DNA from: a virus
Virus record (IMG/VR): IMGVR_UViG_3300020215_000011
Length of the DNA: 50,858 nucleotides
Direction: 5' to 3' (one strand)
Part shown: one piece after another, positions 12,145-43,565 of the stretch
Layout: every line of letters starts with the position of its first letter
Numbering within the stretch: the stretch's first letter is position 1
Position numbers and translations under genes: made by a program
Notes under the pieces: generated by a model
Told to the model about the DNA's origin: nothing
What the model saw: the letters and a program-made list of their open reading frames with translations, nothing else
The model's database searches: none

Positions 12145-12344
12145 AACATCCCCGCGTCGCTGGAGGCCCAGAAGTCGTCCGCGCGCTCCTGCTCCGTCAG
12201 CCGCTCGGAGACCTTCCCGCGGTGGAAGAAGTCGCAGTAGATGCGGTTCGCCGCCGCCCAGTCCTCGCCGGCCGTGGCGACGTGATGCGGACACAGCGCG
12301 GTGTCGCTGTAGAGCTCCAGCCCGCAGGCGGCGCAGAGGCTCAC
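12141..12344 (-). CDS. Cys/His-containing small protein (67 aa)
   Basis: GTG in a GTGA overlap; VSLCAACGLELYSDTALCPHH.. Confidence 0.5.
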   Translation of the reverse strand: MSLCAACGLELYSDTALCPHHVATAGEDWAAANRIYCDFFHRGKVSERLTEQERADDFWASSDAGMF

Positions 12345-12745
12345 GCCGACTCCCAGACGTTCTCGATGACGAGCCAGTGCGGCTTGCGCGCCTGCCGGAA
12401 CTTCTCCATCAGGGCGTCGAGCGCCAGCTTCGATCCGAGGATCTTGCCGTCCCCGCGGATGCGCCCGACGAGGATGCACCCCGAGGTGTCCTCCGGGACG
12501 TTGCCGGCGTGGATGCGGATGCCCTCGAAGGCGGGGACGTTCAGGACGTGCGGCAGCGGCTGCTTGAAGCGCGGGGAGTAGTCCACCACCACCTCGTAGC
12601 GCCCCTCCGGGATCGCCGTCTTCCCCGGAATCTTTACGTCGCGCACGACGTCCTCGAGCGTGAAGCACTCCCACACGCCGTCCAGATAGAGCTCGCCGAT
12701 CGTGGCGTCCTTCTCCACCCAGCGACGCTTGACCGAGAGGTTCAC
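12341..12745 (-). CDS. DUF5675-like protein with YkuD-like ..IHAGN..DTSGCILVG motif; candidate cell-wall enzyme
   Basis: TIGELYLDG..CFTLED...IPEGRYEV...VPAFEGIRIHAGNVPEDTSGCILVG pattern recalled for DUF5675. Confidence 0.6.
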   Translation of the reverse strand: MNLSVKRRWVEKDATIGELYLDGVWECFTLEDVVRDVKIPGKTAIPEGRYEVVVDYSPRFKQPLPHVLNVPAFEGIRIHAGNVPEDTSGCILVGRIRGDGKILGSKLALDALMEKFRQARKPHWLVIENVWESA

Positions 12746-14972: not shown

Positions 14973-16457
14973 TTACTTCACTCTCGTCACGTCGCCCGTG
15001 CGCTTGAGCGCCGGCTTCGGAGGATCGGTCGCCTTCGGCTTGTCCGCCTCTCTCGAGCGCAGGCCACCCACGAAGTCCGGCACCGCGTCCTTGACGTTCA
15101 CGCCCTGGCGGGTGGCGATGTCCTTGAACTGCGTCTCGATCTCCTCGTGGCCGGAGAGCTGCGACTGGAACAGCGCCTTGGCGTTCTGCACGAGATCCTT
15201 GCGGGCCTCGTCCGCGAGCCGGCCGTCCGACGTGAGGTTCTTGCTGTACCAAGCCTGGATGCGCTGCCCGATCGGGCCGAGGTTCTGCGCGGTCGCGAAC
15301 TCCGACTCGCGCACGACGGAGCCGGGGTCGAGCATCTTCATGTAGTTGAAGACGATGGACAGGTCCCCGGCGGGCGACGGCTTGTCCTTCGCCATGTTGA
15401 TGCGCGACCACGAGTCCTTGATGGTGCGGAAGTCCTTCGTGACGTTCGTGAAGTCGTCGCGGATCGTGTTGGCGAGGTTCGCCGTCTGCTGGGGCTGTGC
15501 GTACTTCGCCTTGATGGCTTCGACCGCCTCGGCCTGCTTCGTGACCTTGGCGAGTTCCGCCTTCTGGATGTTCGGGTCGAGGCCCGCTTGCAGTTCGGCC
15601 GTCTTGACGGCCGCCGCCTGCTCGGCTTTGCCCTTCGTGACCTCGGGCGTCAGACCGGCCTGAATCTTCGCGGTCTCCTGCTGGCCGGCGAGAGCCGCCG
15701 CCCCGCTCTGCACGCCGTACTGCGCCATCAGCTTGTCGTCCGCGAGCAGGGACTGGAACGCCGCCCGTACCGCCGGACTCTTGGACAGTTCCGGGAACTC
15801 CTTGCGCGCGACCGCCACCACTTCCTGCTGCGTGATGTTCGTGCGGCCGGGGAACCGCGCCGGGATCAGCGCGAGCGCCTGACTCACGAAGTCCTTGGCC
15901 TTCTGGTCCGCTTTCGCCTGCCACGCCTGGGCGACCTTCAGCCGGTCCTCCGGCGTCTTCGTCGCGGCGAAGTCCTTCGCGGCCACCTCGCGCTCGGTGT
16001 CGAGGATCGGGTCGAGCAGCGCCGTCGCCGCTTCCGCGTAGCCCTTCACCCGGAACGTCGTGTCGATGTCCTTCGGGTCGAACTGGTAGCCGCCGACCTT
16101 GGCCGCCGTGGAGAACAGGCGGATGTTCATGTCGCGCGTCGCGTTCTGGACGTCCTCGGGCTGGCCGTGGAAGTCCGTCGCGAACGTCTTCAGGAGCGTG
16201 GCGAAGTCGCGGTGCGCGTTCATCAGGTCGCGCGCCGCCGTCATCTCCTGCGTCTTCTGGGCGCGCGTCTCGCGCTCGTGCGAGAGTCCGAGATTGAGCA
16301 GCGGGGCCGCCCGCTGGGCTTCGCGCATGACGTCGCCCTGCGTCTGCGGACCACCGAACATCGACCGCAGATCGTTGATCGGTCCCGACGGCTGCGCGGC
16401 GCGGTAGCGCGTCAGGAGCTCGGTGAACAGGTCGGTCGCGCTCTGAGGCTCAGGCAT
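14973..16457 (-). CDS. Virion/ejection protein (494 aa)
   Basis: ORF track; position in the trio. Confidence 0.6.
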   Translation of the reverse strand: MPEPQSATDLFTELLTRYRAAQPSGPINDLRSMFGGPQTQGDVMREAQRAAPLLNLGLSHERETRAQKTQEMTAARDLMNAHRDFATLLKTFATDFHGQPEDVQNATRDMNIRLFSTAAKVGGYQFDPKDIDTTFRVKGYAEAATALLDPILDTEREVAAKDFAATKTPEDRLKVAQAWQAKADQKAKDFVSQALALIPARFPGRTNITQQEVVAVARKEFPELSKSPAVRAAFQSLLADDKLMAQYGVQSGAAALAGQQETAKIQAGLTPEVTKGKAEQAAAVKTAELQAGLDPNIQKAELAKVTKQAEAVEAIKAKYAQPQQTANLANTIRDDFTNVTKDFRTIKDSWSRINMAKDKPSPAGDLSIVFNYMKMLDPGSVVRESEFATAQNLGPIGQRIQAWYSKNLTSDGRLADEARKDLVQNAKALFQSQLSGHEEIETQFKDIATRQGVNVKDAVPDFVGGLRSREADKPKATDPPKPALKRTGDVTRVK

Positions 16458-17194
16458 TACCGGGCCAGCCCCCCGCCCCAGCCGCTGCCCTGCTGGTAGC
16501 TCGCGCCGCCGCCGTAGTTGAAGCCCGTCATCCCCGTCGTCCCGCGGTTCGCGGCGAAGATGTTCGGCTGCGCCCGCCGCTCCGCCGACTGCATCCCCGC
16601 GAACTGCGTGAACCCGGGCTGGAGACCGCCGAGGGCGAGCCGGTTCTGGAACGCCTGCTGCCGAAGCTGCTCCCGGAAGCCGGCGAGGTTGGACGCGAAC
16701 TCCTGCCCGGCGCTCCCGAGATCGAGCGCCGACTTCGCGCGGGCCGTCTCCAGCCCCTCGCCGAACTCGCCGCGCTGACGGATGAGTTCACTGCCGATCG
16801 GGGAGTCCGTCACGTTCATCCCGCGCCCCGCCGCCATCTGCTGCCCGAAGCGCATCAGGTCGGCCTCGCCGCGCTTCAGAGCGGTGCCGTAGATCTGGTC
16901 GAGGTACGCCTGCTGATCGGGCGTCAGGACCGGGGCCGTTCCCTTGAGCCGGTTCAGGATGTTGGTGCTCGCGAGTTCTTCGATCTCGCGCTGCGTCTGC
17001 GCCAGCGGGGACTTCGCGAAGTCCTCGCGCTCCTTCGCCGCGCCCTGGATCTCCGACTTCTGGAGCTGCGCGAGCTCGAGCTGGAGCTTTTCCAGTTCCT
17101 TCTGCGTCTCCGTGGCCGCCGGCAGGGTGATCTGCTGCTGCGTCGTGCCACGGTCACGTCGGGTCGAGGACGAGCCACCGAAATTGAAACTCAT
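16457..17194 (-). CDS. Virion/ejection protein (245 aa)
   Basis: Internal ATG with ATGA overlap on the GNAT stop; the long R-rich extension is rejected. Confidence 0.6.
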   Translation of the reverse strand: MSFNFGGSSSTRRDRGTTQQQITLPAATETQKELEKLQLELAQLQKSEIQGAAKEREDFAKSPLAQTQREIEELASTNILNRLKGTAPVLTPDQQAYLDQIYGTALKRGEADLMRFGQQMAAGRGMNVTDSPIGSELIRQRGEFGEGLETARAKSALDLGSAGQEFASNLAGFREQLRQQAFQNRLALGGLQPGFTQFAGMQSAERRAQPNIFAANRGTTGMTGFNYGGGASYQQGSGWGGGLAR

Positions 17195-17574
17195 GTCAGC
17201 CTCTTGGCGAAGGCGTGGCCCGTGCCCTGCACCTGCACGGCGTAGCGATCGAGAATGTGCGCGGCGTCCGACTTCGTGCCGGTGAACGCCATCCAGGCCT
17301 GCACGCCGTACTCGCGCAGGACCGTCTCCATGTGTTGCAGCAGCCGGATGCCGTACCCCTGATGCTGGAACCGCGGATCGATGGCCGCCTCGGTGATGAC
17401 GGCGTAGGGCGCCCCGAGAAGGGCCTGGACGACGCCGATGATTTCGCCCTTGCGCTCGCACACGAGCGTGACCGGCCCCCACTTGTCGTACGCGATGCCT
17501 TCGACGGCGAGCCCGCAGTCGTGGATCAGTTCGTTCAACCGCGGGAAGTCCTCGGGCTTCGCCGGACGGATCAC
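17191..17574 (-). CDS. GNAT-family N-acetyltransferase (127 aa)
   Basis: ..IDPRFQHQGYGIRLLQHME.. acetyl-CoA-binding Q/RxxGxG/A motif and typical size. Confidence 0.75.
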   Translation of the reverse strand: MIRPAKPEDFPRLNELIHDCGLAVEGIAYDKWGPVTLVCERKGEIIGVVQALLGAPYAVITEAAIDPRFQHQGYGIRLLQHMETVLREYGVQAWMAFTGTKSDAAHILDRYAVQVQGTGHAFAKRLT

Positions 17575-17885
17575 AGGAGCCTCCGCAGGGCGGCCTTGAG
17601 GTCCGCCACCGTCGTTGCTTGATCGAGCGCCTGCCGGGCGGCGTCGCGGTCACTGACGGGCGCCGGCTCCACAACAATCCGGGTGCCTCGGCGTCGCCAC
17701 CGCGTGAGGTCCGATCCGTCCTTCGGCCGCATGGCTTCGTAGGCGTCGTTGGAGTAGTCCTCGGGCGTCGCGTCGGGGTACTTGGCCGCCAGGACCGCAT
17801 TAACGGCCTCGACGGCCGCTGGGGATTCGTCGGCGTACACCGTTTCCGCGAACGAGCCATCGGGGCGGACCCAGAGGCGGATCAA
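17571..17885 (-). CDS. Hypothetical protein (104 aa)
   Basis: TTG start in a TTGA overlap with the tail-fiber stop. Confidence 0.5.
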   Translation of the reverse strand: MIRLWVRPDGSFAETVYADESPAAVEAVNAVLAAKYPDATPEDYSNDAYEAMRPKDGSDLTRWRRRGTRIVVEPAPVSDRDAARQALDQATTVADLKAALRRLL

Positions 17886-24722: not shown

Positions 24723-24933
24723 GGATTCCTCGATCGGGCAGCGCCGGAGGGCGGCCCGTGCGCAGCGCGGGCACATGCCGCGCCGCGGTAATGAGAACGT
24801 TGCGGAAGGCTTCATCGGGGACGTCCCCCGCGAGGCCGGTGAACTGCCAGCCGACCGTCTGGTTGTCGTAGGCCGTCAGCGTGATCTCGAAGACGGGATG
24901 CGGTCCCAGCAGCGGCGAGGGGCCACCGTTCAT
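24709..24933 (-). CDS. Hypothetical protein (74 aa)
   Basis: ATGA overlap with the oxygenase stop. Confidence 0.5.
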   Translation of the reverse strand: MNGGPSPLLGPHPVFEITLTAYDNQTVGWQFTGLAGDVPDEAFRNVLITAARHVPALRTGRPPALPDRGIHERG

Positions 24934-25694
24934 CGCACGAGCCTCCCCACCCACTTCCGGAACCGGGCGACGTACTCCCACGGCCGGGGCCGGTAGTCCG
25001 TCGTCGGCACGAAGGGGTCGTCCTCGCGTCGCGGCCGGTAGTAGTAGAGGGCGAGCGACGCGCGGCTCGGCCCGCGGAACGGATCGGGGTGGCCGTGGAA
25101 GCTGGTCGCGTGCGTCTCGAACAGGACCGCGCGATTGAACGTCGGCGCGATCGACCGGACGCACTGCCGAACCTTCGCGTCCCACAGTTCCAGATCACCG
25201 CCCCACGCGACGTCCCAGTCCTCGGTGAGGTAGATCAGGAGATTCAGGGCCCGCTGCTGGCCCGTCTTCGGATGCCGGGAGAAGTCGGCGTGGACGTCGA
25301 GGAACCCGCCGGGCGGCGAGCAGTGCAGCCCACCGCCGAACAGCGCGTCGTCGCCCGCGACGTCACGCTGGCCGGTGACCCGCTCAAGCCAGCGGAGGAA
25401 CGACGGGGCGTGGAGCGCGTCGATGACGTCCCGCGCGACCGGCCCCACGCGTGTCAGCGTCAACTTGTGCGAATGCCGGTGAATGCGCCGCGTCCAGCGT
25501 GGGGACGACGGAGACGGGATCTCGCGGGCGAGGGCGCGGGCCACCGCCGGAGCGAGGAACCCGTCCATGACGACGTGGCCGTACGGGCGGGCGGCGGCGA
25601 ACGTGCGGCGGAGTGCGGCCCACCGGAGATCGGAACGGAAGGCAGAGAACGGCGCGGCCACCACGGACTCGATGACCGCGCCGTTCGCCGTCAT
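24930..25694 (-). CDS. 2OG-Fe(II) oxygenase, prolyl-hydroxylase/Tpa1-like (254 aa)
   Basis: HxD (FLDVHADF), distal His (SFHGHPDP), RxS (RASLALYYY), ..GGDLELWD.. Confidence 0.65.
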   Translation of the reverse strand: MTANGAVIESVVAAPFSAFRSDLRWAALRRTFAAARPYGHVVMDGFLAPAVARALAREIPSPSSPRWTRRIHRHSHKLTLTRVGPVARDVIDALHAPSFLRWLERVTGQRDVAGDDALFGGGLHCSPPGGFLDVHADFSRHPKTGQQRALNLLIYLTEDWDVAWGGDLELWDAKVRQCVRSIAPTFNRAVLFETHATSFHGHPDPFRGPSRASLALYYYRPRREDDPFVPTTDYRPRPWEYVARFRKWVGRLVR

Positions 25695-25696
25695 GG

Positions 25697-26686
25697 TTAG
25701 TTGATCGCCGTCAGCGCCGTGCCGGAGCCTTCCTGGTAGCACTCCGTCAGCTGCGCTTCGTTGGCGCCGAAGTTGTCCACGACGAGGCCCGAAGTGATGA
25801 CGCCCGTCCGCGGGAACAGACACCGGACGATGTGAACGCCATCCGCGACCGAGGCGGTCGTGCCGTCGATGCAGGAACCCATCGTGCCGGAGGTGATCCA
25901 CACCGAGTTCTCGATCACGCAGCCGTCCGCGGCGGTCGCCACGGCGAAGGGCGTGGCCCACGCACCCGACGTGTTGTGGAACAGGCAGTTCTCGACGTGG
26001 ACCATTGCCGTCGCGATGTCCACCGCCCGCCCCTGCGCGCCCTCGGCCACGAACGTGCAGTCCTTGATGTAAGCCGTGGCGAGCGTGGTCGTGTTGGAGT
26101 GCTTCGCGATGGAGGCCCCGCCCGCGGTCGAGGAGTCGGCCCGGTAGCCGAAGTCGATCCCGTAGGTGCCGACCGAGGGGTCCGGCGTCTGGAGATCGAA
26201 GTAGCAGCGGTAGAAGATCGTGCTGTTCGGGCTGGCGTTGCGGAACTGCACGGCCGAGAACCCCGAGGTCGGTGTGATCGTCAGCCACGAGACGAGGATG
26301 TTGTTCGCCTCGATGGAGAGCGTCGCCGTGCTCGTCCCCGTGCTCGCGAGGACCGACTTCGGCTTGAACGCGCGCACGGCGAAGTCGGCGTACGGGTTGT
26401 GGACACCGACGACCGTGAGCCCGGCCTTCGTGAGCCGCTGCACCGCGGTGACGGTGTGCGTGCCCTCGAGCATCACGGCGACGTCGCCGGCATTCGCGGA
26501 GGCCAGCGCGTTGAAGCGGTTCAGGTCCCGGATCGCCCGCTCGGGCGAGAGACCGTCGTTGTCGTTGCTGGCCGAGTACGTGCGCCCCTCGATCGTGTAG
26601 CTGTCCGAGGGGGCGATGTAGAACACGCGCCCCGTCTGCACGACCGGCAGGCCGTACAGCGAGCCGTATTTCGTGAGGTAGCTCAT
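25697..26686 (-). CDS. Right-handed beta-helix (pectate-lyase-fold-like) protein (329 aa)
   Basis: Periodic ..I.NC.F / V.NS.W.. turns, Gly/Thr/Ser/Ala-rich rungs; immediately downstream of the capsid gene. Confidence 0.5.
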   Translation of the reverse strand: MSYLTKYGSLYGLPVVQTGRVFYIAPSDSYTIEGRTYSASNDNDGLSPERAIRDLNRFNALASANAGDVAVMLEGTHTVTAVQRLTKAGLTVVGVHNPYADFAVRAFKPKSVLASTGTSTATLSIEANNILVSWLTITPTSGFSAVQFRNASPNSTIFYRCYFDLQTPDPSVGTYGIDFGYRADSSTAGGASIAKHSNTTTLATAYIKDCTFVAEGAQGRAVDIATAMVHVENCLFHNTSGAWATPFAVATAADGCVIENSVWITSGTMGSCIDGTTASVADGVHIVRCLFPRTGVITSGLVVDNFGANEAQLTECYQEGSGTALTAIN

Positions 26687-31622: not shown

Positions 31623-31901
31623 GTGGGCGTGAAGTGCCGCTTCTGCCAAGACGACGAGGGCCACCCGATCACCGCGGCCTGCTTCAACGCCCAAGCCGAG
31701 TCGGTGCTGGCGACGCTCTCCGTCGTCGCGCTGGCACCGATGAACGCGGTTCCGCTGTCGTGGTCCGTGATGGCAGATTCAGGGGAGTCGGGGCGCTGGA
31801 TCGAGTTCCACGAGGGGCGGATCATCGACGCCCAGCCGCACGATGACGGCGTAATCGTCACGGTCGAGAACGGCAAGCAGTACATCATCCGTCCGACGTA
31901 G
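31623..31901 (+). CDS. Plus-strand small protein (92 aa; CRFC motif)
   Basis: Shares codon third positions with minus ORF 31613..31888. The minus product is S/T/P/W-rich like known shadow ORFs in that frame (e.g. 32354..32719, 33371..33886). The plus product has normal composition and a G-rich first codon position. Confidence 0.5.
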   Translation: MGVKCRFCQDDEGHPITAACFNAQAESVLATLSVVALAPMNAVPLSWSVMADSGESGRWIEFHEGRIIDAQPHDDGVIVTVENGKQYIIRPT

Positions 31902-34272
31902 CCCCCGCCAGTTCATCACTCGACGGGGCTTCCGTCTGCATCCCCGGCGCCTCTCCCGCGGACGGCTGGCTCCCCTGCCCCTGTCCGCTGTTGCCGAGCG
32001 ACGACGAGAAGTCGGCCGCCGCCTGCGCGAGCTGCTGCGCCTTCATCTGCTCCTGAATCAGGATGCTCACCTGCTGGAGATAGGCACGGAACAGCCCGGC
32101 CTGCGGCGCCGTCAGGAATCCGAAGTTGTCCGACTGCATGAACTTCTGAAGGTTCATCAGGTGCTCGGTCGGCTCCTCAAGCGGCGTGCCCACCGGCAGG
32201 GCGTTCGTCTCCATGATCGCGAGGATGGCCTCCTCGGCGGTGATCTTCGGCCCCGAGGTCACGCCGAGCGGCTTCTTGATGTACCGCGAGGGATCGAGCG
32301 TCGCCGCTTTGATGAGGTCGGTCTGCCAGTTGTAGTACTGCTCGGCGCTGACCGTGCCGACCTGGAAGGACAGCGGGTTGAACACCGCCATGCCGATCGC
32401 CTGGAGCGCCTGCTGCACGAGCCCCTTGTTCGTGTTCAGCAGCGTCGGCTGCCAGTCCCACGCGATCGGGATGGCGACGTCGAGCGGGTCCGCGATCTCG
32501 CGATACGGGTCCTCGTGCTCCTCCAGTTGCCCCGAGGCGAGGTACTGCTTGCGCTTCTTGAGGAACCGCCCGTTCAGGAGGTGGAACTGCTCCCACACCT
32601 GCCGGAGCCCCATGAACAGCCTGCGAAGAATTTGCTCCGGCATCGCCGCGCCCTGCTGGAGGATCGCCATCGTCGTCCCGAGCGTGCGGAGCGCCGACGC
32701 CTTGCCCTGCGGCACCTGACCACGCTGGATCGGGCCGATCTGCGTCACGTCGTCCATGAACTGCTTGGCGAGGCCCACCATGTTGAACCCGAACGTCTGG
32801 TCCGCGTGCGGCAGCGTCGGGAAGAACACGTCCTGCTGCGGGTTGTCGATCGGGTAGAGATCGCCCGGCCACAGCTTGATCGCTTCGGGCTTCATGCCAC
32901 TGGACGCCCGGTAGAACCCGAACGGACGGTTGGCGAGGTCGCCGTTGTCCGTCATCTGGTTCAACATGACGTGCAGGAAGTCGTGCAGCCCCTCCATCAC
33001 CTCGAGGAGCGAGATGCCGTAGATCTGGCCCTCGACGGGGATGTAACACGTATGCGACATGGGCCGGGTCAGCGGGATGCCGGGGGAGAGCTCCGTCAGG
33101 TACTTCGCGCGGATCAGGGTTTCGGATTCGCGGAGCACCCAGAAGATCACTTCTTCCTGGAGGCCGTCGTCATCGACGTCCCATCCCCCGAACCACTGGA
33201 TCAGCGTGAGCCACTGCTTGTCGTAGTCGTGGGGGCCGGACGGCTGGATGCCGGCGGCGTCTTCCTTCTGCTGCTTCGGCCCGTCGTCCGTCTCCCCGCC
33301 GTCGGTCGGGACGCGCCCCTCGGCCGCCGCCAGGATCTGCTTCCAGTCGTCGTCGGTGATGAGGTCGTAGATGCCGTCTTTCTCACCGCGCTTGAGTTCA
33401 TCGACGGTGATGCGGCTCATGCGCGCGACCCACGGGGCGCCCTTCGGATTGTGCGGCGTGACGGGCTGCGGGTTCTCGCAGCGCACCGGCACCACGACGT
33501 CCTCGAGGTCGTCCACGATGGCGGTGGGGCCATCGAACGTCGTCGCGTCCCAGACGGCGACGAGCTCCAGGCGTTCCTCGTCCTTCTCCCAGACGGTGAA
33601 GTCCACTTCCGTCCGCTGCTGGTCGTCGTTGACGAAGGCGCCCGCCCAGACGGTGCCGTGTTCGTTCTTCGCGACGAGTTCGGTGACCTGGGGGAACAGG
33701 TCAGGGATCGCCACGGCCATCGATTCGATCAGCGGCCGGTCGTCCTTGGGCAGGACCCGAACGTCGGTGAGTCGCGAAGAATGCTTGACCCACGGCTGGA
33801 AGCTGAAGACCGCGGGGTCCTTGCAGAACTGCGCGATGTACTTCTGGATGAACTGCTCGCCGTTGCCTTCCACGAACAGCTGGTAGTCGATCAGCTGATT
33901 GGCGGCCTCGGCCTTGTCGCGGAGATCCTTGCGCACCTTCGGCTCGAACGGCGGGCGAATGCCCATGACGGCGTTGAACAGGCCGGCCTCGACGCGCAGC
34001 TCGTTCGCCATCATCGCGGGATAGTGGTGATTGGAGCAGCCGTCCCACGGCGGGGACTCGCGCTGCGTCCAGCCGCGGAACTTGGCGTAGCGTTCCATGC
34101 GCTTGTCGAGCCACGTCTGGCGCTCGCCCATCGCGTCGTCCACTCGCTCGATGACGCCCTGCACGACGTCGGTGGCGTCGACCGACATGCGACGCTTGCG
34201 AAGCCTCGGGCCGGGCTCGGGCTTCTCGTCGGGAGCAGCGAGGTTCAGCGGGTTCGCGTAGTCGTCGGCCAT
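31885..34272 (-). CDS. Portal protein (795 aa)
   Basis: Large acidic protein downstream of terL; size and position. Confidence 0.75.
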   Translation of the reverse strand: MADDYANPLNLAAPDEKPEPGPRLRKRRMSVDATDVVQGVIERVDDAMGERQTWLDKRMERYAKFRGWTQRESPPWDGCSNHHYPAMMANELRVEAGLFNAVMGIRPPFEPKVRKDLRDKAEAANQLIDYQLFVEGNGEQFIQKYIAQFCKDPAVFSFQPWVKHSSRLTDVRVLPKDDRPLIESMAVAIPDLFPQVTELVAKNEHGTVWAGAFVNDDQQRTEVDFTVWEKDEERLELVAVWDATTFDGPTAIVDDLEDVVVPVRCENPQPVTPHNPKGAPWVARMSRITVDELKRGEKDGIYDLITDDDWKQILAAAEGRVPTDGGETDDGPKQQKEDAAGIQPSGPHDYDKQWLTLIQWFGGWDVDDDGLQEEVIFWVLRESETLIRAKYLTELSPGIPLTRPMSHTCYIPVEGQIYGISLLEVMEGLHDFLHVMLNQMTDNGDLANRPFGFYRASSGMKPEAIKLWPGDLYPIDNPQQDVFFPTLPHADQTFGFNMVGLAKQFMDDVTQIGPIQRGQVPQGKASALRTLGTTMAILQQGAAMPEQILRRLFMGLRQVWEQFHLLNGRFLKKRKQYLASGQLEEHEDPYREIADPLDVAIPIAWDWQPTLLNTNKGLVQQALQAIGMAVFNPLSFQVGTVSAEQYYNWQTDLIKAATLDPSRYIKKPLGVTSGPKITAEEAILAIMETNALPVGTPLEEPTEHLMNLQKFMQSDNFGFLTAPQAGLFRAYLQQVSILIQEQMKAQQLAQAAADFSSSLGNSGQGQGSQPSAGEAPGMQTEAPSSDELAGATSDG

Positions 34273-34705: not shown

Positions 34706-34875
34706 CGGCAGATCTTCGACACTTCGTCCGCGTGCGTCTTACACGTCAGGACGGCTTGGCCTTGCGCGAGATTCACGAACCAGCAGCCGCAGGTTCGGAT
34801 CTCGCAGATCGGTATCGTTCTGAGCGAGTCGGCCATCGTCATGTTGCCGGCGAACAAGTCGCGACCGTCGATCAT
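34702..34875 (-). CDS. Cys-containing small protein (57 aa)
   Basis: ATGA overlaps at both ends. Confidence 0.5.
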   Translation of the reverse strand: MIDGRDLFAGNMTMADSLRTIPICEIRTCGCWFVNLAQGQAVLTCKTHADEVSKICR

Positions 34876-35183
34876 CGGAACACCCTCGTCATGGCTTCTC
34901 CGCAGCAGGACGGCGTGTGCCCCGTGAACGGCGGGCTGCCATCGCACGGCTCGAACCCGTTGAAGTAATGGCCGGGCTGGTGCCGGAACTCGTGGAGGAT
35001 GACGCGGTAGGCGCGCCCCCCACACTTCCGGCACGTCAGCCACGCATCGTGTTCGTGCCGCCCGGAACAGTGCTGGGCGCACGTAGGACCTTCCGGCGGC
35101 AGCGGAAGCGTGCGCGGCGCCGTCCCGGGCAGCACGAGGCGTTGCTTCTGCGCGAAGATCTGGTCCCAGCGTTCGTCGCTCAT
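34872..35183 (-). CDS. Cys/His-rich protein (103 aa)
   Basis: ORF track; ATGA overlap with the terL stop. Confidence 0.6.
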   Translation of the reverse strand: MSDERWDQIFAQKQRLVLPGTAPRTLPLPPEGPTCAQHCSGRHEHDAWLTCRKCGGRAYRVILHEFRHQPGHYFNGFEPCDGSPPFTGHTPSCCGEAMTRVFR

Positions 35184-36874
35184 CCGCGTCTCCGATGCTG
35201 GAACACCATCCCGCGCGTGTAGCCGGTGAACGACGGCCGGTCGAGCGCGAAGTAGCGGACGAGATCCGGGAAGTCCTTGTGACGGTCCCTAACCTTCTCC
35301 TTCGGCTCCTTGTCGCCGCCGCGCGTCCACTCGTCCCACGTCCAGTGGGTCATCCCGTAGATGAACTTCGGGCACGTGTTGAACACCGCGAACCGTGGAC
35401 GGCGGGTCCGGGGATCGGGACGCAGGAGTTCGTTGACCTGCGAGATGCCGGCGTTGATCTCGTCGTTCGCGAGATCGCAGCGGATGCCTTCTTGGTCGTA
35501 CTCCTTGCGGATCGTCCACCCGCGCTGCATCCGGTCGTTCGTCTCGGTGGCGATGTTCGGGTCCATCAACCGCTTCACCGGACGCATCCGATGGCGCTCC
35601 TCGAAGGAGCGGATTTCGCGCGCGACGTCCTTCGCGGTGCCCGTCGCCTCGAGCTCCCCGACCATGAACACGTCGTCTGACGGCGCCACCGCGAACCAGC
35701 CGATCGCGTCTGCCTTTCGAGGATGCGGGTCGATCACCATGACGACGGGCCAGCCGGCGGGAATCGGGAACGGCTCGATCACGTGCGAGAACTGCGAGAG
35801 ATCGTCGCCCTTGCACGTCGGGCACGACCCGTCGATGCCGAGCACGCGCTTCTGGCAGCGGTAGCACCACGTCGCGTAGGTGCGCTCGAACATCGAGTAC
35901 ACGACGCCCGAGAGATGGATGAACCGGCCGTAGAGTCGAACGGCCCGCTGCTCGTCGGTCAGTCGTTCCGCGATCGCCTGCACGTCCTCCGGAGAGAGGA
36001 TCGTGTTGCGCTCGGTGAACAACTGGATGGTGTCGATCTCCGGGTGCTGGTTCGGCCCCGGGAGTCCTGGTTCATAGATCTCGTCGAAGAACCACGCGGC
36101 ATCGACCTGGGCGGACCCGGCTTCGTCCGGGGGCGTGAACGCCGTGTAGAGCTGGCCGCGGACGTCGAGCGTGCGTAGCCGGTTTTCCCGGTAGATGTCC
36201 GAGGGTGGCAATTCGTCGTGGCCGACCCAGTGCAGCGAGGACCCCGCGAACGCCGAGAGGTCCTGGTCGTAGGACATCAGCTGAATCGTGGACGTGCCGC
36301 TGACGGAGTTGATGGAGCCGTCCGCCCCCCGCCAGTACGAGTCCACGCTGACGTGGAGGGTCCGATAGCGTTCGGAGTACGCCTTTTCCCACGACCCGCC
36401 GGCCAGACAGTGCCGGGGAATCCATCCCCAGTGACCGCGGCCGTCGTTCGGGTCGCCGACGCCGTTCCACTGATCCCAGCGCAGCTTCGGCTTGATGACG
36501 GGCTCGATCGTGTCCGTCAGCGAGTTGCACACGAGGCGGGCGCGGATCGGGGCGCGGATCTTCTCGCGCGGATACGTCCCCATCAGAGACACCGGGATGT
36601 GGCCCGTCGCCTGAATCGCCAGTTCCGCCAGCATCGTGTCCGTCTTGCTCGAGCGGTTGCCGCCGACGATGGCGACCTCGCGCTTCATGCTCGTGTGCGC
36701 CTTGAGCGCGTCGGGATTGCGGACCTGGTAGTAGGCGAGCTGCGTGCCCTTGCGGTCCTCCTGCAAGGCCTGGGTGGTCTGCATCAGGACCGTGCGGAAC
36801 CACGCCGGATTCTCCCGCGCCCTCGCGATCAGCTCGTCCTGCGAGAGCTCGGAGAGATCCTTGAGGTCGATCAC
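35180..36874 (-). CDS. terL: Terminase large subunit (564 aa)
   Basis: Walker A-like VGGNRSSKTDT, Walker B-like LHWVGHDELP, C-terminal nuclease-like acidic motifs; GTG in a GTGA overlap. Confidence 0.85.
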   Translation of the reverse strand: MIDLKDLSELSQDELIARARENPAWFRTVLMQTTQALQEDRKGTQLAYYQVRNPDALKAHTSMKREVAIVGGNRSSKTDTMLAELAIQATGHIPVSLMGTYPREKIRAPIRARLVCNSLTDTIEPVIKPKLRWDQWNGVGDPNDGRGHWGWIPRHCLAGGSWEKAYSERYRTLHVSVDSYWRGADGSINSVSGTSTIQLMSYDQDLSAFAGSSLHWVGHDELPPSDIYRENRLRTLDVRGQLYTAFTPPDEAGSAQVDAAWFFDEIYEPGLPGPNQHPEIDTIQLFTERNTILSPEDVQAIAERLTDEQRAVRLYGRFIHLSGVVYSMFERTYATWCYRCQKRVLGIDGSCPTCKGDDLSQFSHVIEPFPIPAGWPVVMVIDPHPRKADAIGWFAVAPSDDVFMVGELEATGTAKDVAREIRSFEERHRMRPVKRLMDPNIATETNDRMQRGWTIRKEYDQEGIRCDLANDEINAGISQVNELLRPDPRTRRPRFAVFNTCPKFIYGMTHWTWDEWTRGGDKEPKEKVRDRHKDFPDLVRYFALDRPSFTGYTRGMVFQHRRRG

Positions 36875-38148
36875 GCGGGCTGGTGCTTCAACTGTCCGAG
36901 GCGGCGACAGACCGCCATCCCGACCCGCATCAGCCCCTTGCCGACCACCGAGTCCCCGTGGGCCATCTCGCGCGTCCACGGCTCCGCCACGACCCACACG
37001 AGGCGGGTGACGACCGAGGACCGGCGCATCGCGCGCACGACGGTCGGCGCCCAGCGGTAGTAGCCGGCGAGGACGACGGGATCGACCGTGCGGCCGAACG
37101 CCTCGTCCGCCTTCCACGTCGCCTCATCGAGGTAGCCCTGGCGGTAGAGCTCCGTGCAGATGACGGTGGCCCCGCCGGCACCTCCCCCTCCGCCGCCCGC
37201 GGCCCCCCCGTCGCTCTCGTCGCCGCTGCCGCTCGGGCCCGCCGTCCCGGTCCCCGAAGACGTCCCACCGCCATCCGTTTCGTCGCCGCTCGGTGCCGGC
37301 CCGGTGCCGGTCGGCCCCATCCCCGTGTCTTCGCTGAAGGTGACCGGCGCGGTGGTCGTCGTGTCCGGCATCCCGCCGCGGACCCCTGACGAGAACAAGC
37401 CCGGCTGACCCTGAAGGCCCGTCACGGCGGTGGTCGGCGCCGCGGTGAACGACGGGTTCGACAGATCCCCGAAGGTCGGCGACGGGATGCCGGACTCACT
37501 CAGCGGCCCCGTCCCGAGCGCCCCGACCGCGATCCCGCTGCTGTTCGGCGTCGAGGTGGTCGTCGGAGACGTCGTGCCGCTCAGGAACCCCTCCAGCCCG
37601 TTCACGACGCCTTGCAGCCCGCTCACCGTCGCCTGGGACGCCGGGGGGGCCGGCCCGAACGCCCCGAGGCCGAAGTTCGCCAGGCTCGCGGCCAGCCCCA
37701 GTCCCGGCACCGCGGCGTTCGCGATCGTCCCGACGAGGCCGTTCGCCACCGTCGAGGGAATGCCGAACTGCGCGCCGAGCTGGGCCGCCGGGGTCGCGGA
37801 CGCGATCGTCCCCAGATCCCCGAGCAGACCGCCGGAGTTCCCGTGCCCGCCGGAGACCCCGGAGCCCGCGCCCGGCGCCGATGGAGCGCCCGCTTCTCCG
37901 GTTGGCCCGCCGGGGGTCCCTGGCGAATTGATCTGCCCGGTTACGGATTCGGCGTTGCCGATCGCCCCCTCAAAGAACCCGATGCCGGGGTTGTACGGGG
38001 CCGGGGACGCCGCCGGCATGAACGTGGACGGCTGCCCCGGAAACGCCGTGTCCGACCCCTGGACGCCCGGCAGCGTCACCGGCTGGCCTGACGGACGCCC
38101 GGGATAGGCAATGTCCAGCCCGGCCAGACTCAGCGGAGCCGTCAGCAT
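36871..38148 (-). CDS. Gly/Ser/Thr/Pro-rich low-complexity protein with a ~95-aa globular C-terminal domain (425 aa)
   Basis: Single ORF coupled to terS (TGATG) and terL (GTGA); G-rich first codon positions argue it is the true frame; C-terminus ..VICTELYRQGYLDEATWKADEAFGR.. Confidence 0.6.
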   Translation of the reverse strand: MLTAPLSLAGLDIAYPGRPSGQPVTLPGVQGSDTAFPGQPSTFMPAASPAPYNPGIGFFEGAIGNAESVTGQINSPGTPGGPTGEAGAPSAPGAGSGVSGGHGNSGGLLGDLGTIASATPAAQLGAQFGIPSTVANGLVGTIANAAVPGLGLAASLANFGLGAFGPAPPASQATVSGLQGVVNGLEGFLSGTTSPTTTSTPNSSGIAVGALGTGPLSESGIPSPTFGDLSNPSFTAAPTTAVTGLQGQPGLFSSGVRGGMPDTTTTAPVTFSEDTGMGPTGTGPAPSGDETDGGGTSSGTGTAGPSGSGDESDGGAAGGGGGGAGGATVICTELYRQGYLDEATWKADEAFGRTVDPVVLAGYYRWAPTVVRAMRRSSVVTRLVWVVAEPWTREMAHGDSVVGKGLMRVGMAVCRRLGQLKHQPA

Positions 38149-38594
38149 CAGCGCGCCTCCTTCGGCATCTCCGCCTCGATGATCCGGGCCACCTGCCCGA
38201 GCCGTGATACCAGCTCCGGCATCGACACCCGGACCTCGTGGAGGTTCGCCACCAACTGCGTCGGCTGCCCGCTCAGGAGCTGCACCTTCTCCGTCGAGAT
38301 CCCCATCGTGATCGCCAGCGCCTGCCGGTCCTTCGGGCTCAGATCCGCCTTCCGCATCCCGTCATAGGCCCCGAAGAACGTGTCATGCCACGCCGCCAGC
38401 ATCTCCGGCACGTGCGACTTCTTCAGCGCGTCGATCTCCGGTCCCAGATGCGAGAGGATGTCCCGCACCGTCCGGCGCGGAACCCCCGTCTCGGAGGCAA
38501 TGGACGGCGTACAGGCCTCTCCCCGAAGCGCCAGGTTCCGCGCCGCCGCTTCCGCTACGGCCCGGACCTGTTCCGGCTGAACCCGGGTAGCCAC
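38148..38594 (-). CDS. terS: Terminase small subunit-like protein (148 aa)
   Basis: N-terminal HTH-like ..TPSIASETGVPRRTVRDIL..; position at the head of the packaging module. Confidence 0.5.
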   Translation of the reverse strand: MATRVQPEQVRAVAEAAARNLALRGEACTPSIASETGVPRRTVRDILSHLGPEIDALKKSHVPEMLAAWHDTFFGAYDGMRKADLSPKDRQALAITMGISTEKVQLLSGQPTQLVANLHEVRVSMPELVSRLGQVARIIEAEMPKEAR

Positions 38595-38643: not shown

Positions 38644-39087
38644 TCACGGGTGCGCGCACCCCACTTTCCCGCACCGCCCCGGCCCCCCGCAGTTCTTCCC
38701 GATCCGCCCCTCGTAGACCGGCTCTTTGACCGGCCACACCCCCTTCCGCGCCTCCGCCAGCTCCCCCTTCAACCGCCCCACGTCCAGCCGCAGCATCTCG
38801 ATCTCAGGCACCAGCAGCCGAAGGCGCGCCACCTCCGCCAGCAGCACCGCGCAATGCGGGCACTCGCCCTTCTGAATCGCCTTCCGTCGCCGGACGCTGT
38901 TCGACTCGGGAACCCGGTCCACCGATACGTTGAACCCGGCATACGCGGGATCGACGCTCAACGTCGCGTTCTCCCCCCGGGAACGTTCCCCCTCTTGTTC
39001 TCCCCCCGGCGTTCTCCCCTTCCGGCACCGGGAACACCACCGCTGCTTGCCGGCCTCGCGTTCTCCGCACTTCGTACAGGTCGCCAT
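38644..39087 (-). CDS. Zinc-finger plus coiled-coil protein (147 aa), candidate late regulator
   Basis: CTKC..CSRC, CPHC; sits between the two copies of the 30-nt element. Confidence 0.6.
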   Translation of the reverse strand: MATCTKCGEREAGKQRWCSRCRKGRTPGGEQEGERSRGENATLSVDPAYAGFNVSVDRVPESNSVRRRKAIQKGECPHCAVLLAEVARLRLLVPEIEMLRLDVGRLKGELAEARKGVWPVKEPVYEGRIGKNCGGPGRCGKVGCAHP

Positions 39088-40988: not shown

Positions 40989-41176
40989 CAGCCGTAGCTC
41001 ACGATGAGTTCGGGTGAGGTCGAGGACAGGTGCGCGTCTAGGGACGCGATCGTGGCGTCCCGTTGCTCGGTCGTCGCCCCGTTCAGACCCATTCCGTCAG
41101 CCTCCACGAAGTCAATCCAACGGCAGCGGCGGGGAGCCCCAGTGTTCCAGCCGGCGCGGCGCAGCAGGGTCCTCAT
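40988..41176 (-). CDS. Hypothetical protein (62 aa)
   Basis: ATGA overlap. Confidence 0.5.
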   Translation of the reverse strand: MRTLLRRAGWNTGAPRRCRWIDFVEADGMGLNGATTEQRDATIASLDAHLSSTSPELIVSYG

Positions 41177-42495
41177 CGGTCCAGCACGGTCCGCATGGCG
41201 GTGATCCACGAGTCGAGACGCTGGCGCTGCGCGCGGGAGCCGGCCTTGAACGCGGACGCGCCGATCGTCCCGCCGCCGAGATGGACGTAGAACGGAATCG
41301 CCCGGTCATCGCACGCAACGTCGCAGGTATGCCCTCTGAAGGCGGCCTGATACAGCATGGTCGCCCGCCAGCCTGGTTCAACACTCTCGGCAACGTCGTA
41401 CTCCGGCATCTTCGGCGCGAGATTCATCGTGGCAAACGTAGCCACATCGAACAGCGTCCCGGCGGAATGACCGCGCTGGCTCCGCCGGCTCACGATCGCC
41501 GCCGCGGGCAATGGCTGCCGCAGGAGATAGGACAGCCAGCCGGCGCGGACGGGCAGCGCGTCGTCGTGCATGATGAAAACGTGCGAATATCCCGCAGCCC
41601 CGGCCCGATCGAGCGCGCCGCGCAGCATGCGGAGCGCGAGCGCGTTAGCCTCGCCGCCGCGTTCGTCCCACGGCCCGTGATCCAGCAGGAACACGTCGTG
41701 GGGGACGTCCTGCGTGAACCGCGCTATCGCATCGCGGGCGAGGTTCGCCAGCGCGCGCTCGCCTGAAGACGGGATCAGGATGGCGACACGCCTCGCCGCG
41801 GCCTTGATTTGCAGCGCCTCCAGCATGGCCGTAAGCGTGTCGTTCATCGCCACGTCGCACGCGCGGCCGGCAGCCGCAGCGGCCCTGGCGGCCGTCCCGA
41901 AGGATGCAGAGGTCGCGGCCGTGGCCGCGGCCGACGTGACGGCGGCGTTAATGGCCATGAAGACGGCGAGGGCGGGGTCAGGCGAGGTGACCACGTTCGC
42001 CGCCGCGATGGCCGCGTGAGCGGTTGCCGACCAGTAGCGTTCATAAAACGTCCTCCGTGCGGCCCACGCTCCGTGGGCCGCCGCGTCGAGATCCACCCGA
42101 CTAGCCTCGCCATGCCGGTACGCCTCCGCGGCCCGCAACACCTCATACGCGCGTCGGTCCACCGTGAGGCCGCGCGCCGCAGCCCGGTCCAGCGCCTGCG
42201 TCCCCACCACCAGCGCGAACGCGCGCAGCGTATCCGTGCAGTCGGCGGCCCAGAGCACCCGGCGCTCGCTCGCGCACACCTTGTCCTCGTCGCGCTCGAT
42301 CGCCCCTGACAGTTCCACGCGGGACACGACGCACGGCATTCCGGGCGGCGCATAGCGCAGCGCATCCAGGGCGCGCTCGCTGGCGTGTAGACCGCGCGCG
42401 CCCAAGGCTAGGGGCGGCAGCACGGTGTACGTAGCGACGTCGAGCGGCTGGCCATCGCGGAGTTTCCAGTTCGCGGCGAAATGCCAGCCGATCAT
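41173..42495 (-). CDS. Two-domain protein: unknown N-domain plus GT2-like glycosyltransferase C-domain (440 aa)
   Basis: ..VAILIPSSGER.. and ..FIMHDDALP.. (DxD-like) in the C-terminal half. Confidence 0.5.
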   Translation of the reverse strand: MIGWHFAANWKLRDGQPLDVATYTVLPPLALGARGLHASERALDALRYAPPGMPCVVSRVELSGAIERDEDKVCASERRVLWAADCTDTLRAFALVVGTQALDRAAARGLTVDRRAYEVLRAAEAYRHGEASRVDLDAAAHGAWAARRTFYERYWSATAHAAIAAANVVTSPDPALAVFMAINAAVTSAAATAATSASFGTAARAAAAAGRACDVAMNDTLTAMLEALQIKAAARRVAILIPSSGERALANLARDAIARFTQDVPHDVFLLDHGPWDERGGEANALALRMLRGALDRAGAAGYSHVFIMHDDALPVRAGWLSYLLRQPLPAAAIVSRRSQRGHSAGTLFDVATFATMNLAPKMPEYDVAESVEPGWRATMLYQAAFRGHTCDVACDDRAIPFYVHLGGGTIGASAFKAGSRAQRQRLDSWITAMRTVLDR

Positions 42496-43565
42496 CCGAC
42501 GAGCTCCGTGTAGACCGCCATCGTCCCGCGCACGCACCGCTCCCACCGGAAGTGGCGGTCGATCCGCTCGCGGGCCGCCTCGCCGAACAGGCGCCGCACC
42601 GGAGCGTGGTCGATCAGGAGTCGCAGCGCACGCACATAGTCGTCCTTCGTCCGGCAGACGAATCCCGCGTCGCCGACGAGCTCCGGTAGTGACCCCGCGT
42701 CCGAGGTCACAACCGGCAGCCCGGAGGACATGGCTTCCCCGACCGCTAGGCCGAAACCCTCCATCGACGACGGGAACACGAAGATGTCCGCGCGCTGATA
42801 CCACGCCGGCTTGTCCGCCTCCGGGATGTACCCGCTGCACGAGAAACCTTGCGCCTCGAGCATGGCGCGGTCCGGGCCGTCGCCCGCGATCACGAGCGAC
42901 GCGCTCGGGCGCTCGACCGCGCGCCACACGTCGAGAAGCAGGCCTAGGTTCTTTCTCGGCTTCAACCCGCCGAGGAACAGGACGCGGACTTTTCCGTCAT
43001 GCGGGACCTGCCGCGGCGTGAAGCGGCGATCGATCCCGTAAGGAACGACCCGCACGTGATCCGTCCTGAACCCTTCCGCCGCCATCTGGCGCCGAGCGAA
43101 CTCGCTGCCGACGATCACCCGGTCCACCAAGCGGACGACTTGCCGCTCGACCGGCCACGGCCCCGCGTCAAGGTGGTGGTGATGGGCCACGATGGGAACG
43201 GACCACCCATAGCGGCGCTTCGCGATCAAGCACGCCGGCCCCATGAACTTGAGGCTGTGGACGCGGAGCACATCGAACGGGTGGAGATGCCGGAGGGCCC
43301 GGGGAACGACGAACGGGGCGATCGTCCAGTGCAGTCCTCGCGCAACCGGAAATCGCGTCACAGCCCGCCCGAGGCTCGCAGGATGCGGCTTCCCGTGGGC
43401 CAGCAGGATCTTCTGCTGGGCTGGCAGGCGCGTCAGCAGATCGACCTCGTAGCGTTCGCCCCCGGAGTTCGTTTCCGGGTCGAGACCACAGTGGGGGGAA
43501 CAGACGACTATCAGGGGGGTCCCTCCGGCCGTCCGCCGCGCCCGTCGTCGTCTTCGTCCGTCCAC
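42492..43565 (-). CDS. GT4-family (GT-B) glycosyltransferase; true start probably near 43514
   Basis: ..FPSSMEGFGLAVGEAMSSGLPVVTSD.. EX7E motif; GC3 favours the upstream gene frame for 43514-43565; a CTGA junction lies at 43511-43514. Confidence 0.7.
   Translation of the reverse strand: MDGRRRRRARRTAGGTPLIVVCSPHCGLDPETNSGGERYEVDLLTRLPAQQKILLAHGKPHPASLGRAVTRFPVARGLHWTIAPFVVPRALRHLHPFDVLRVHSLKFMGPACLIAKRRYGWSVPIVAHHHHLDAGPWPVERQVVRLVDRVIVGSEFARRQMAAEGFRTDHVRVVPYGIDRRFTPRQVPHDGKVRVLFLGGLKPRKNLGLLLDVWRAVERPSASLVIAGDGPDRAMLEAQGFSCSGYIPEADKPAWYQRADIFVFPSSMEGFGLAVGEAMSSGLPVVTSDAGSLPELVGDAGFVCRTKDDYVRALRLLIDHAPVRRLFGEAARERIDRHFRWERCVRGTMAVYTELVG

Follow-up and report, generated by a model that had tools for sequence, protein, structure and literature searches.

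Gene X (ORF425) is an open reading frame (ORF) of 425 amino acids (aa) on the minus strand of IMG/VR virus record IMGVR_UViG_3300020215_000011, a stretch of viral DNA of 50,858 nucleotides (nt) with a G+C content of 68%, which is called the window here. The gene is located between terL, which encodes the large terminase subunit, and a gene for a 148-aa protein that is a candidate for the small terminase subunit (terS) (Table 1). Its product consists of a low-complexity N-terminal region, a Gly-rich linker and a compact C-terminal domain (C-domain). The C-domain belongs to a cross-phylum family which has no entry in Pfam, NCBIfam or the annotated PHROGs and no fold relative in the PDB. The first base of the ATG of X (38148..38146) is at the same time the last one of the TGA that ends the 148-aa ORF upstream (TGATG), and the TGA of X (36873..36871) overlaps the GTG of TerL (36874..36872; GTGA), so that the coupling on both sides which had been pointed out in a preliminary description of this DNA can be read directly in the sequence.

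The same description had taken the minus-strand frame as the true one on account of its G-rich first codon positions. We rejected this criterion, as well as the G+C content at third codon positions (GC3), since the antisense frame mimics both. GC3 does not discriminate here because the plus-strand ORF of 225 aa (37430..38107), whose GC3 of 0.90 is the same as that of X, shares its third codon positions with the sense frame. The frame was therefore judged by a stop-codon comparison of orthologous regions. Of the six possible frames, the sense frame alone had no stop in the window or in any of the five orthologous regions, whereas 3, 0, 5, 5, 3 and 9 stops were counted in the shadow frame of these six regions. 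In four of the five pairwise comparisons, the best protein score was also that of the sense frame. Judged from these comparisons, X is evidently a real minus-strand gene and the plus-strand ORFs are its shadows; the proposed frame was thus right, although the argument from G at codon positions fails to discriminate. The candidate genes of the window, selected with a crude codon-position GC filter, are nearly all on the minus strand.

Residues 1–325 of X contain 68% Gly, Ser, Thr, Pro and Ala (G/S/T/P/A) in comparison with 32% in TerL plus portal, and 18 acidic (D+E) against two basic (K+R) residues. The entropy of this region, calculated in segments of 40 residues, is 2.5–3.5 bits, while TerL plus portal average 3.77 bits, and X is the protein of the window richest in G/S/T/P/A (0.60 vs. 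0.52 for the next one). Two copies of the motif SGDE(T/S)DGG are found at residues 287 and 308, with a GGGGGG run at 318. The low-complexity N-terminal part and the compact C-terminal domain were confirmed, and all the peptides that had been quoted for them occur in the sequence. Tandem Repeats Finder detected just three short arrays with 1.9–3.3 copies, and X is therefore a protein of biased composition and not a repeat protein; the possibility of a collagen-like or tandem-repeat protein was rejected on the basis of these short arrays and of the lack of a sustained period-3 glycine pattern. No signal peptide or transmembrane segment was found in X, no stretch of which reaches the transmembrane hydrophobicity threshold.

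The word "disordered", which had been used for the N-terminal region, agrees with its biased composition and low entropy but is too simple, since motifs are conserved here at 45% identity. The motifs conserved in the clade are the N-terminal (F/L)xxP..L.G, ESVTG, LANFGLGAFGPAP and IAVGALGTGPLSESGIPSPT. The region is 45–46% identical over ~270 residues to protein P0002, with which it has the motifs LAN..LGAFGPAP, TVSGL.GVV.GLEG and IAVGALGTGP.SESGIPSPT in common. These similarities argue for some constraint on the region, more than the term disordered implies.

Relatives of the C-domain were sought by an exhaustive profile search, as a word-indexed search with the C-domain by itself yielded no protein, that of the window included, and the one with the full-length protein was swamped by low-complexity candidates and gave three relatives only. 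The profile (A2) consisted of three domains, that of the window included, and was compared with 1.84 billion cluster representatives; relatives were counted as clusters at 50% identity, and their architecture was read from the best 150 listed. The search gave 1,669 relatives at an expect value (E) ≤ 1e-3, 773 at ≤ 1e-10 and 80 at ≤ 1e-30. The match of the window protein to the profile (E 3.6e-33) is not independent, since this protein is one of the three source sequences; independent matches of its C-domain are those to P0003 (E 8e-11) and to gp49 of phage HMO-2011 (E 7e-7). The C-domain of the window is 44–54% identical to those in the relatives L008, L009 and L012. In all 150 listed members the domain is C-terminal, on proteins of 128 to 1,859 aa, and it nearly always follows a poly-Gly run and then (K/S)-I-I-C-T; in the window it follows GGGGGGAGGAT.

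The family has the signature ICT...D...GY..WA...PW..MA. In an alignment of 141 domains (101-aa alignment numbering), Cys7, Asp24, Gly38 and Tyr39 are invariant, and Ile6, Gly14, Gly28, Trp42, Ala43, Gly79 and Gly86 are conserved in at least 98%. The window protein has all the invariant residues and also the near-invariant Trp42, Pro66-Trp67, Gly79 and Gly86. AlphaFold2, used with a 39-sequence alignment, predicted a five-helix bundle for the C-domain (mean predicted local distance difference test score (pLDDT) 89.7, predicted template modelling score 0.79). The sequence-profile search of the PDB with the C-domain gave no match at E ≤ 10, and the Foldseek search of the model against the PDB gave nothing credible (best E 2.4). 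Designed helical repeats, sperm lysin and Bcl-xL, which appeared as possible fold relatives with probabilities ≤ 0.15, were rejected as noise. Among the BFVD models, Foldseek found only uncharacterized phage proteins, HMO-2011 gp49 among them. Pfam, PHROGs and NCBIfam contained no family for ORF425, for the carriers of the C-domain or for the variants of X, and the Pfam search with ORF425 gave no match even at E ≤ 1. A match of the C-domain to a well-known family, which had been named beforehand as a possible refutation, was thus not found; the family to which it belongs is large but uncharacterized.

In 83 of the top 151 members, the domain is followed by a transmembrane-like tail. X of the window, which extends only a few residues past the domain, belongs to a tail-less, short-form subgroup. 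The N-terminal partners in 80 members include Gly_rich_2 (16), DUF4815 (9), Hint modules, PA14, He_PIG Ig and CBM5/12. In six members (P0011, P0015, P0021, P0090, P0098 and P0124), a Hint domain ending with ...VHN(K/C) directly abuts the C-domain; in others, CNCNCNC runs precede it. The family comes from marine cyanophages, SAR116 phages, groundwater phages and prophages of cultured Alphaproteobacteria. Matches in genome collections were found in Alphaproteobacteria (among them the cultured Shinella granuli DSM 18401, S. daejeonensis JCM 16236, Terasakiella sp. A23 and Thalassospira aquimaris), Spirochaetota, Patescibacteria, Acidimicrobiales, Desulfobacterota, Clostridiales, Planctomycetes and one metagenome-assembled genome of Woesearchaeota; it is the C-domain and not TerL that these have in common with the window. 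For structural and functional studies on the assembly or anchoring of phage appendages, this family provides a concrete target.

Two hypothetical proteins are the closest known counterparts of X. The protein gp49 of Puniceispirillum phage HMO-2011 (YP_008320311, 762 aa) has the same C-domain (tblastn E 7e-7, 31% identity), and its BFVD model S4S2E0 superposes on the C-domain of the window with a template modelling score of 0.87; in the literature on HMO-2011-type phages we found nothing on gp49. The protein SynMITS9220M01_028 of a Synechococcus cyanomyovirus (616 aa) has the same domain, which matches that of the family member P0006 at E 4e-24. Like X, both are encoded in structural modules, but unlike X they have unrelated N-terminal regions. 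Their positions also differ from that of X, which precedes terL. The gene of gp49 comes after that of the portal and is followed by a 289-aa gene, probably for the scaffold, and then by the coat gene; the gene of SynMITS9220M01_028 directly follows that of a giant fibre protein of 1,963 aa. Contig L009 has, in succession, a terL-like gene, the portal gene, a gene for 142 aa, the carrier gene and genes for 378 and 320 aa, with an SU10_adaptor gene farther along. The two genes upstream of the carrier in 78 IMG/VR loci, as far as they were recognizable, were mostly portal (16), phrog_332 adaptor/portal (8), terL (~10), virion structural (11) and baseplate wedge (11) genes. Among the recognizable ones of the two genes downstream in the IMG/VR loci were those for the major head protein (6), the scaffold (4), structural proteins and tail fibres; unrelated genes, e.g. 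that of ribonucleotide reductase, were also found downstream.

Relatives of the window were gathered through TerL and through the 148-aa protein. A homologous low-complexity X is present upstream of terL in roughly 20 relatives of the TerL clade, often with coupled start and stop codons. It lies directly upstream of terL, adjacent or overlapping, in L013/L025 (799 aa), L044 (849 aa), L027-L029, L028, L040, L031 (546 aa), L043 (387 aa) and L008/P0152 (561 aa). A short ORF intervenes between X (412 aa) and terL in L046, and small genes (GNAT, formyltransferase-like and unassigned ones) lie between the two in L002, L012, L051, L132 and L133. In L132 and L133, X comes directly after the homologue of the 148-aa protein; in L134 this homologue is close upstream of X, and in L013 it is in the neighbourhood. 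X had been described as inserted between terS and terL. This is not correct, because X is kept upstream of terL in these roughly 20 relatives, the pair of the 148-aa protein and X is itself conserved, and the variable insertions lie downstream of X. The synteny check that had been suggested thus found the order X–terL recurring across the TerL clade. X as a conserved neighbour of terL corrects the assumption that candidate terS and terL adjoin in the clade with the SU10-type portal.

The X proteins share the start motif F(F/Y)GP..L.G and ES(I/V)TG, and they end in different ways. The C-domain studied here ends X in the window, L008, L012, L031, L043, L046, L051 and L132-L134; an alternative ending ...GGIDLYALLRQLGY is found in L013, L028, L040 and L044, and still another one, ...GPEGGEW, in L027 and L029. 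P0002 (L002, 5807..6841) and its counterpart in L038 (2..544) stop exactly at the linker ...GGGDGGK and have no C-domain. As read from the sequences, these two cases show that the C-domain was lost or replaced precisely at the module boundary. In L002, a small ORF in the opposite orientation follows the stop of P0002. The C-terminus is swapped among the relatives, and X therefore behaves as modular structural proteins do.

We tentatively favour, at a little less than an even chance, the explanation that X is a low-copy virion appendage and that the C-domain is its assembly or anchoring module. In this reading, X is a clade-conserved late gene of a temperate phage with an SU10-type portal and adaptor, and it would be co-translated at a low level with the terminase genes; the low copy number is suggested by this coupling. 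The product would be associated with the virion at the head or near the portal. Residues 1–325 form a lineage-specific, acidic, extended part rich in Gly, Ser, Thr, Pro and Ala, which may be the exposed, functional part of the appendage. The poly-Gly run would act as a hinge, and the widespread five-helix domain of ~100 aa behind it may register or oligomerize the chains or dock them to the particle; in many relatives, it may act at a membrane. The strictly C-terminal position of the domain on variable fibre- or adhesin-type proteins, together with the hinge, the swapped C-termini of the relatives, the confident model of a compact helical bundle, the conserved place upstream of terL and the structural neighbours, favours such an appendage, and the Hint junction in the six members fits a C-terminal module that could be removed once assembly is complete. 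X belongs to no described family, while the logic of a modular structural-region protein with a portable terminal module is already known.

The foldon of T4 fibritin and the Peptidase_S74 domain of endosialidase-type tailspikes are C-terminal registration or chaperone modules of phage fibres. Like them, the C-domain is conserved and strictly C-terminal on variable fibrous proteins, and the Hint junction found in some members would allow its removal. Unlike them, it is all-helical, has no Ser-Lys dyad and is followed by a transmembrane-like tail in many members. Peptidase_S74 gave no Pfam match in ORF425 and was not among the families found in the 80 family members. Minor head proteins of the SPP1 gp7/Mu gpF family, which includes MuF polymorphic toxins, are encoded after the portal gene. 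Many C-domain proteins resemble them in their modularity and in the gene order portal, (small gene), X-like gene, scaffold, major capsid. In contrast to the MuF toxins, their conserved module is C-terminal and the variable part N-terminal, i.e. in reverse arrangement, and X of the window lies upstream of terL. No MuF or gp7 domain was detected in ORF425 with Pfam or PHROGs, and the gene after the portal gene in the window encodes a Wzy_C-like protein.

Several observations weigh against an appendage. All members of the family are known from sequence and predicted fold alone, and searches of the PDB, with Foldseek and of NCBIfam linked the C-domain to no known anchoring, foldon or chaperone domain by fold or sequence. 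Virion-docking surfaces normally co-evolve with their partners. The C-domain retains 30–55% identity and four invariant residues (Cys, Asp, Gly and Tyr) across unrelated phyla; such conservation is unusual for a docking surface and would fit better an enzyme or a binder of a membrane or ligand. The transmembrane-like tail of the 83 members is odd for a virion fibre, and X of the window is in the packaging cassette and not after the portal gene. Moreover, the C-domain is dispensable for the role of the N-terminal region, because L002 and L038 do without it.

An alternative that we consider possible, if rather unlikely, is that X is an ejection (pilot) protein, which is packaged in the head near the portal, passes unfolded through a short tail and inserts in the host membrane to aid the entry of the DNA. 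The Gly/Ala-rich hydrophobic stretches, the helical C-domain and the transmembrane tail of the relatives would be its membrane-active parts. The window encodes an SU10-type portal and adaptor and has no ORF of the size of a tape-measure gene, and the phage is therefore probably a podovirus, which would need ejection proteins. X is in the head/packaging module, and in other members the carriers are next to the portal gene. Its low-complexity sequence would suit the passage through a narrow channel, and it contains glycine-zipper-like segments, e.g. GLVGTIANAAVPGLGLAASLANFGLGAFG, which are much longer in L013 and L044. The transmembrane-like tail of 83 of the 151 members speaks for this reading as well, and lipid, as a target present in all hosts, would account for the conservation across phyla. 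However, no segment of X in the window reaches the hydrophobicity threshold for a transmembrane helix. Members with PA14, CBM5/12, Ig and long fibre domains, encoded among the baseplate and fibre genes of myoviruses, are unlike internal proteins, and PHROGs showed no similarity to the ejection proteins of T7, P22 and epsilon15.

It is distinctly unlikely that X is an accessory protein of DNA packaging which, like lambda gpFI, bridges the terminase–DNA complex and the prohead without being a stable part of the virion. The protein gpFI consists of a disordered region and a small folded C-domain. X has a similar layout, with a flexible part ahead of a small folded C-domain, and its gene is likewise among those for the head and packaging; the translational coupling between candidate terS and terL and the slot immediately upstream of terL, conserved across the clade, would be in agreement with such a role. 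X is three times larger than gpFI, however, and the Pfam search revealed neither a sequence relation between the two nor a match of X to a packaging family. Several relatives have 1–3 kb of unrelated small genes between X and terL, the C-domain, which is the sole folded part, is absent or replaced in relatives with very similar TerL, and it also occurs on fibre-like proteins encoded far from any terminase gene.

The strict invariance of Cys7, Asp24, Gly38 and Tyr39 in 141 diverse domains, and the strong conservation across phages of unrelated phyla, could also mean that the C-domain is an enzyme or host-directed effector which uses the invariant Cys and Asp, X being delivered or cytoplasmic. 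The new predicted fold without a PDB match is consistent with this, as is the Hint domain that precedes the C-domain in some members, as in polymorphic-toxin architectures. We consider this very unlikely, since no His, or other residue that would obviously serve as a catalytic partner, is invariant, the domain, with ~100 aa in a helical bundle, would make a small enzyme, the neighbouring genes are mostly structural and nothing resembling an immunity gene was noticed as a partner. Finally, the chance that the region is non-coding or a part of a plus-strand gene, for which the GC3 of the 225-aa plus-strand ORF speaks, is practically negligible in view of the stops in the shadow frames of most orthologues, the sense frame open in six of six regions, the conservation of the sense-frame protein, the 1,669 relatives of the in-frame C-domain and the orientation of almost all candidate genes of the window.

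The S/T/P-rich composition of X had led to the suggestion that it may be a substrate of a hydroxylase and glycosyltransferases encoded by the phage. Both kinds of enzyme are encoded in the window, a 2-oxoglutarate (2OG)- and Fe(II)-dependent oxygenase similar to prolyl hydroxylases and a glycosyltransferase of the GT4 family. The oxygenase was found through its HxD...H...RxS motif and matches 2OG-FeII_Oxy_3 (E 8e-18), OGFOD1 (3e-6) and EGLN2 (2e-3); no close relatives of it were found in the viral contigs of IMG/VR. A third protein of interest is the polytopic membrane protein encoded downstream of the portal gene, an unusual gene for this slot. Its match to Wzy_C (O-antigen ligase; E 8e-4) is below the Pfam cutoff; it has at least five hydrophobic segments and the motif EAHNDYLEMFYEYGLLG. 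Its identity with the counterparts in the closest relatives (L012, L017 and L020) is 79%, while the oxygenase, the GT4 protein and a 347-aa protein were not found in the examined parts of the relatives.

Within the framework of a virion appendage, with which this is compatible, X might even be a mucin- or extensin-like glycoprotein: its N-terminal region would be hydroxylated by the 2OG oxygenase and glycosylated by the GT4 enzyme, possibly with the participation of the Wzy_C-like protein, to give a glycan-coated appendage held by the C-terminal module. We regard this as unlikely. In such a case, the C-terminal module would be a new fold, used in more than 1,600 clusters of phage proteins for self-assembly or for docking to membranes. 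In chlorovirus PBCV-1, Pro-rich viral repeats are acted on by a prolyl 4-hydroxylase. The window phage resembles glycosylated actinophages in encoding a glycosyltransferase together with a Ser/Thr/Pro-rich protein of a structural module, and it adds the prolyl-hydroxylase-like oxygenase. The precedent for virion glycosylation in actinophages, the capsids of Che8 and Rita, comes from Freeman et al. (2023, Cell Host Microbe 31:1216), as cited in PMC11256854; in Che8, it is the major capsid protein that carries the glycans (PMC11256854). Unlike in Che8, the candidate substrate here is a separate low-complexity protein. The combination of X, an oxygenase, a glycosyltransferase and an O-antigen-ligase-like protein makes hydroxyproline-linked virion glycosylation in a bacteriophage directly testable.

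Another candidate for a modification substrate is the 467-aa product of 16460..17860, which has an S/T/P-rich N-terminus. Inside ORF 16457..17860 (minus strand), another frame (17194..17574, minus strand) codes for a GNAT acetyltransferase (Acetyltransf_1, E 6e-10), and the 467-aa ORF is therefore probably over-extended or partly spurious.

Table 1 Gene X, its parts and selected other features of the window
Feature	Position	Strand	Basis or remark
Gene X	36871..38148	minus	425-aa ORF, stop codon included; product identical to public gene-catalogue protein P0001
Shine-Dalgarno sequence AAGGAGG	38162..38156	minus	7 nt 5' of the ATG of X, within the end of the upstream gene; read from sequence
N-terminal low-complexity region of X, residues 1-325	37174..38148	minus	68% G/S/T/P/A, acidic, clade-conserved motifs
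Gly-rich linker GGGGGGAGGA, residues 318-327	37168..37197	minus	Module boundary; poly-Gly run here in most C-domain family members
C-domain of X, residues ~329-423 of 425, beginning with VICTELYRQGYL	36880..37164	minus	Profile search, AlphaFold2
terL, 564 aa	35180..36874	minus	GTG start overlaps the stop of X
Candidate terS, 148-aa helical protein with N-terminal helix-turn-helix	38148..38594	minus	Stop overlaps the ATG of X
SU10-type portal gene	31885..34272	minus	Largest ORF of the window, 795 aa
Polytopic Wzy_C-like membrane protein, 379 aa	30555..31694	minus	Directly downstream of the portal gene
Prolyl-hydroxylase-like 2OG-Fe(II) oxygenase	~24930..25700	minus	In the structural-gene block; start approximate, listed ORF to 26288
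GT4-family glycosyltransferase	42492..43565	minus	Glycos_transf_1, E 7e-29

Of the two neighbours of X, which had been called terS and terL, the downstream gene is indeed terL, while terS is plausible but unproven for the upstream gene, for which no family match was found. TerL matches phrog_2 (E 2.3e-10) and is 25% identical to annotated terminases of Arthrobacter phages and Caudoviricetes, of which the alignments cover 87–93% (E down to 4e-33); its match to Terminase_6N is below the Pfam cutoff. The GTG at 36874 is the true start of TerL because the N-terminus aligns with those of three TerL homologues, and the longer ORF listed from 37117 was rejected as an artefact. In some relatives, TerL has ~890 aa with an intein-like insertion (L132, 6976..9642; 891-aa ORFs in L042 and L043), as indicated by weak matches to Intein_splicing and LAGLIDADG and by an alignment jump from residue 201 of the query to residue 522 of the subject.

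The candidate terS product gave sub-threshold helix-turn-helix matches (HTH_43, 0.0055; HTH_23, 0.009), and none of Pfam, PHROGs and NCBIfam assigned it to a terS family. In the public gene catalogue it is shorter, with 106 aa (P0153); the 148-aa form, which reaches into the start of X, is supported by ten close homologues of 142–162 aa. The AlphaFold2 model, made with an alignment of the homologues, is all-helical (mean pLDDT 69), and its best fold matches are weak ones to TetR-type regulators and to 2ao9 (E ~0.4, probability ~0.5), a protein of a B. cereus prophage that has been cited as a putative terS. X always stands between the gene of the 148-aa protein and terL, in relatives together with additional genes. 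Its homologue is present in L013, L132, L133 and L134 and was not found in the examined part of L002.

Besides the SU10-type portal and adaptor, the phage has genes for an integrase, ERF, a DNA methylase and HNH. Directly downstream of terL, a 103-aa Cys/His-rich protein (34872..35183, minus strand) without family assignment is encoded, which is conserved throughout the TerL clade, with 29–78% identity in 27 loci. A 147-aa protein (38644..39087, minus strand) has a zinc-ribbon-like N-terminal CxxC...CxxC, a segment LRLDVGRLKGELAEAR that resembles a coiled coil and several clustered Cys at its C-terminus; its homologue near X in L134 is 49% identical over the C-terminal part. A DUF5675 protein (12344..12745, minus strand; E 4e-34) and a DUF7666-containing protein (41173..42495, minus strand; E 1e-6) are also encoded in the window.

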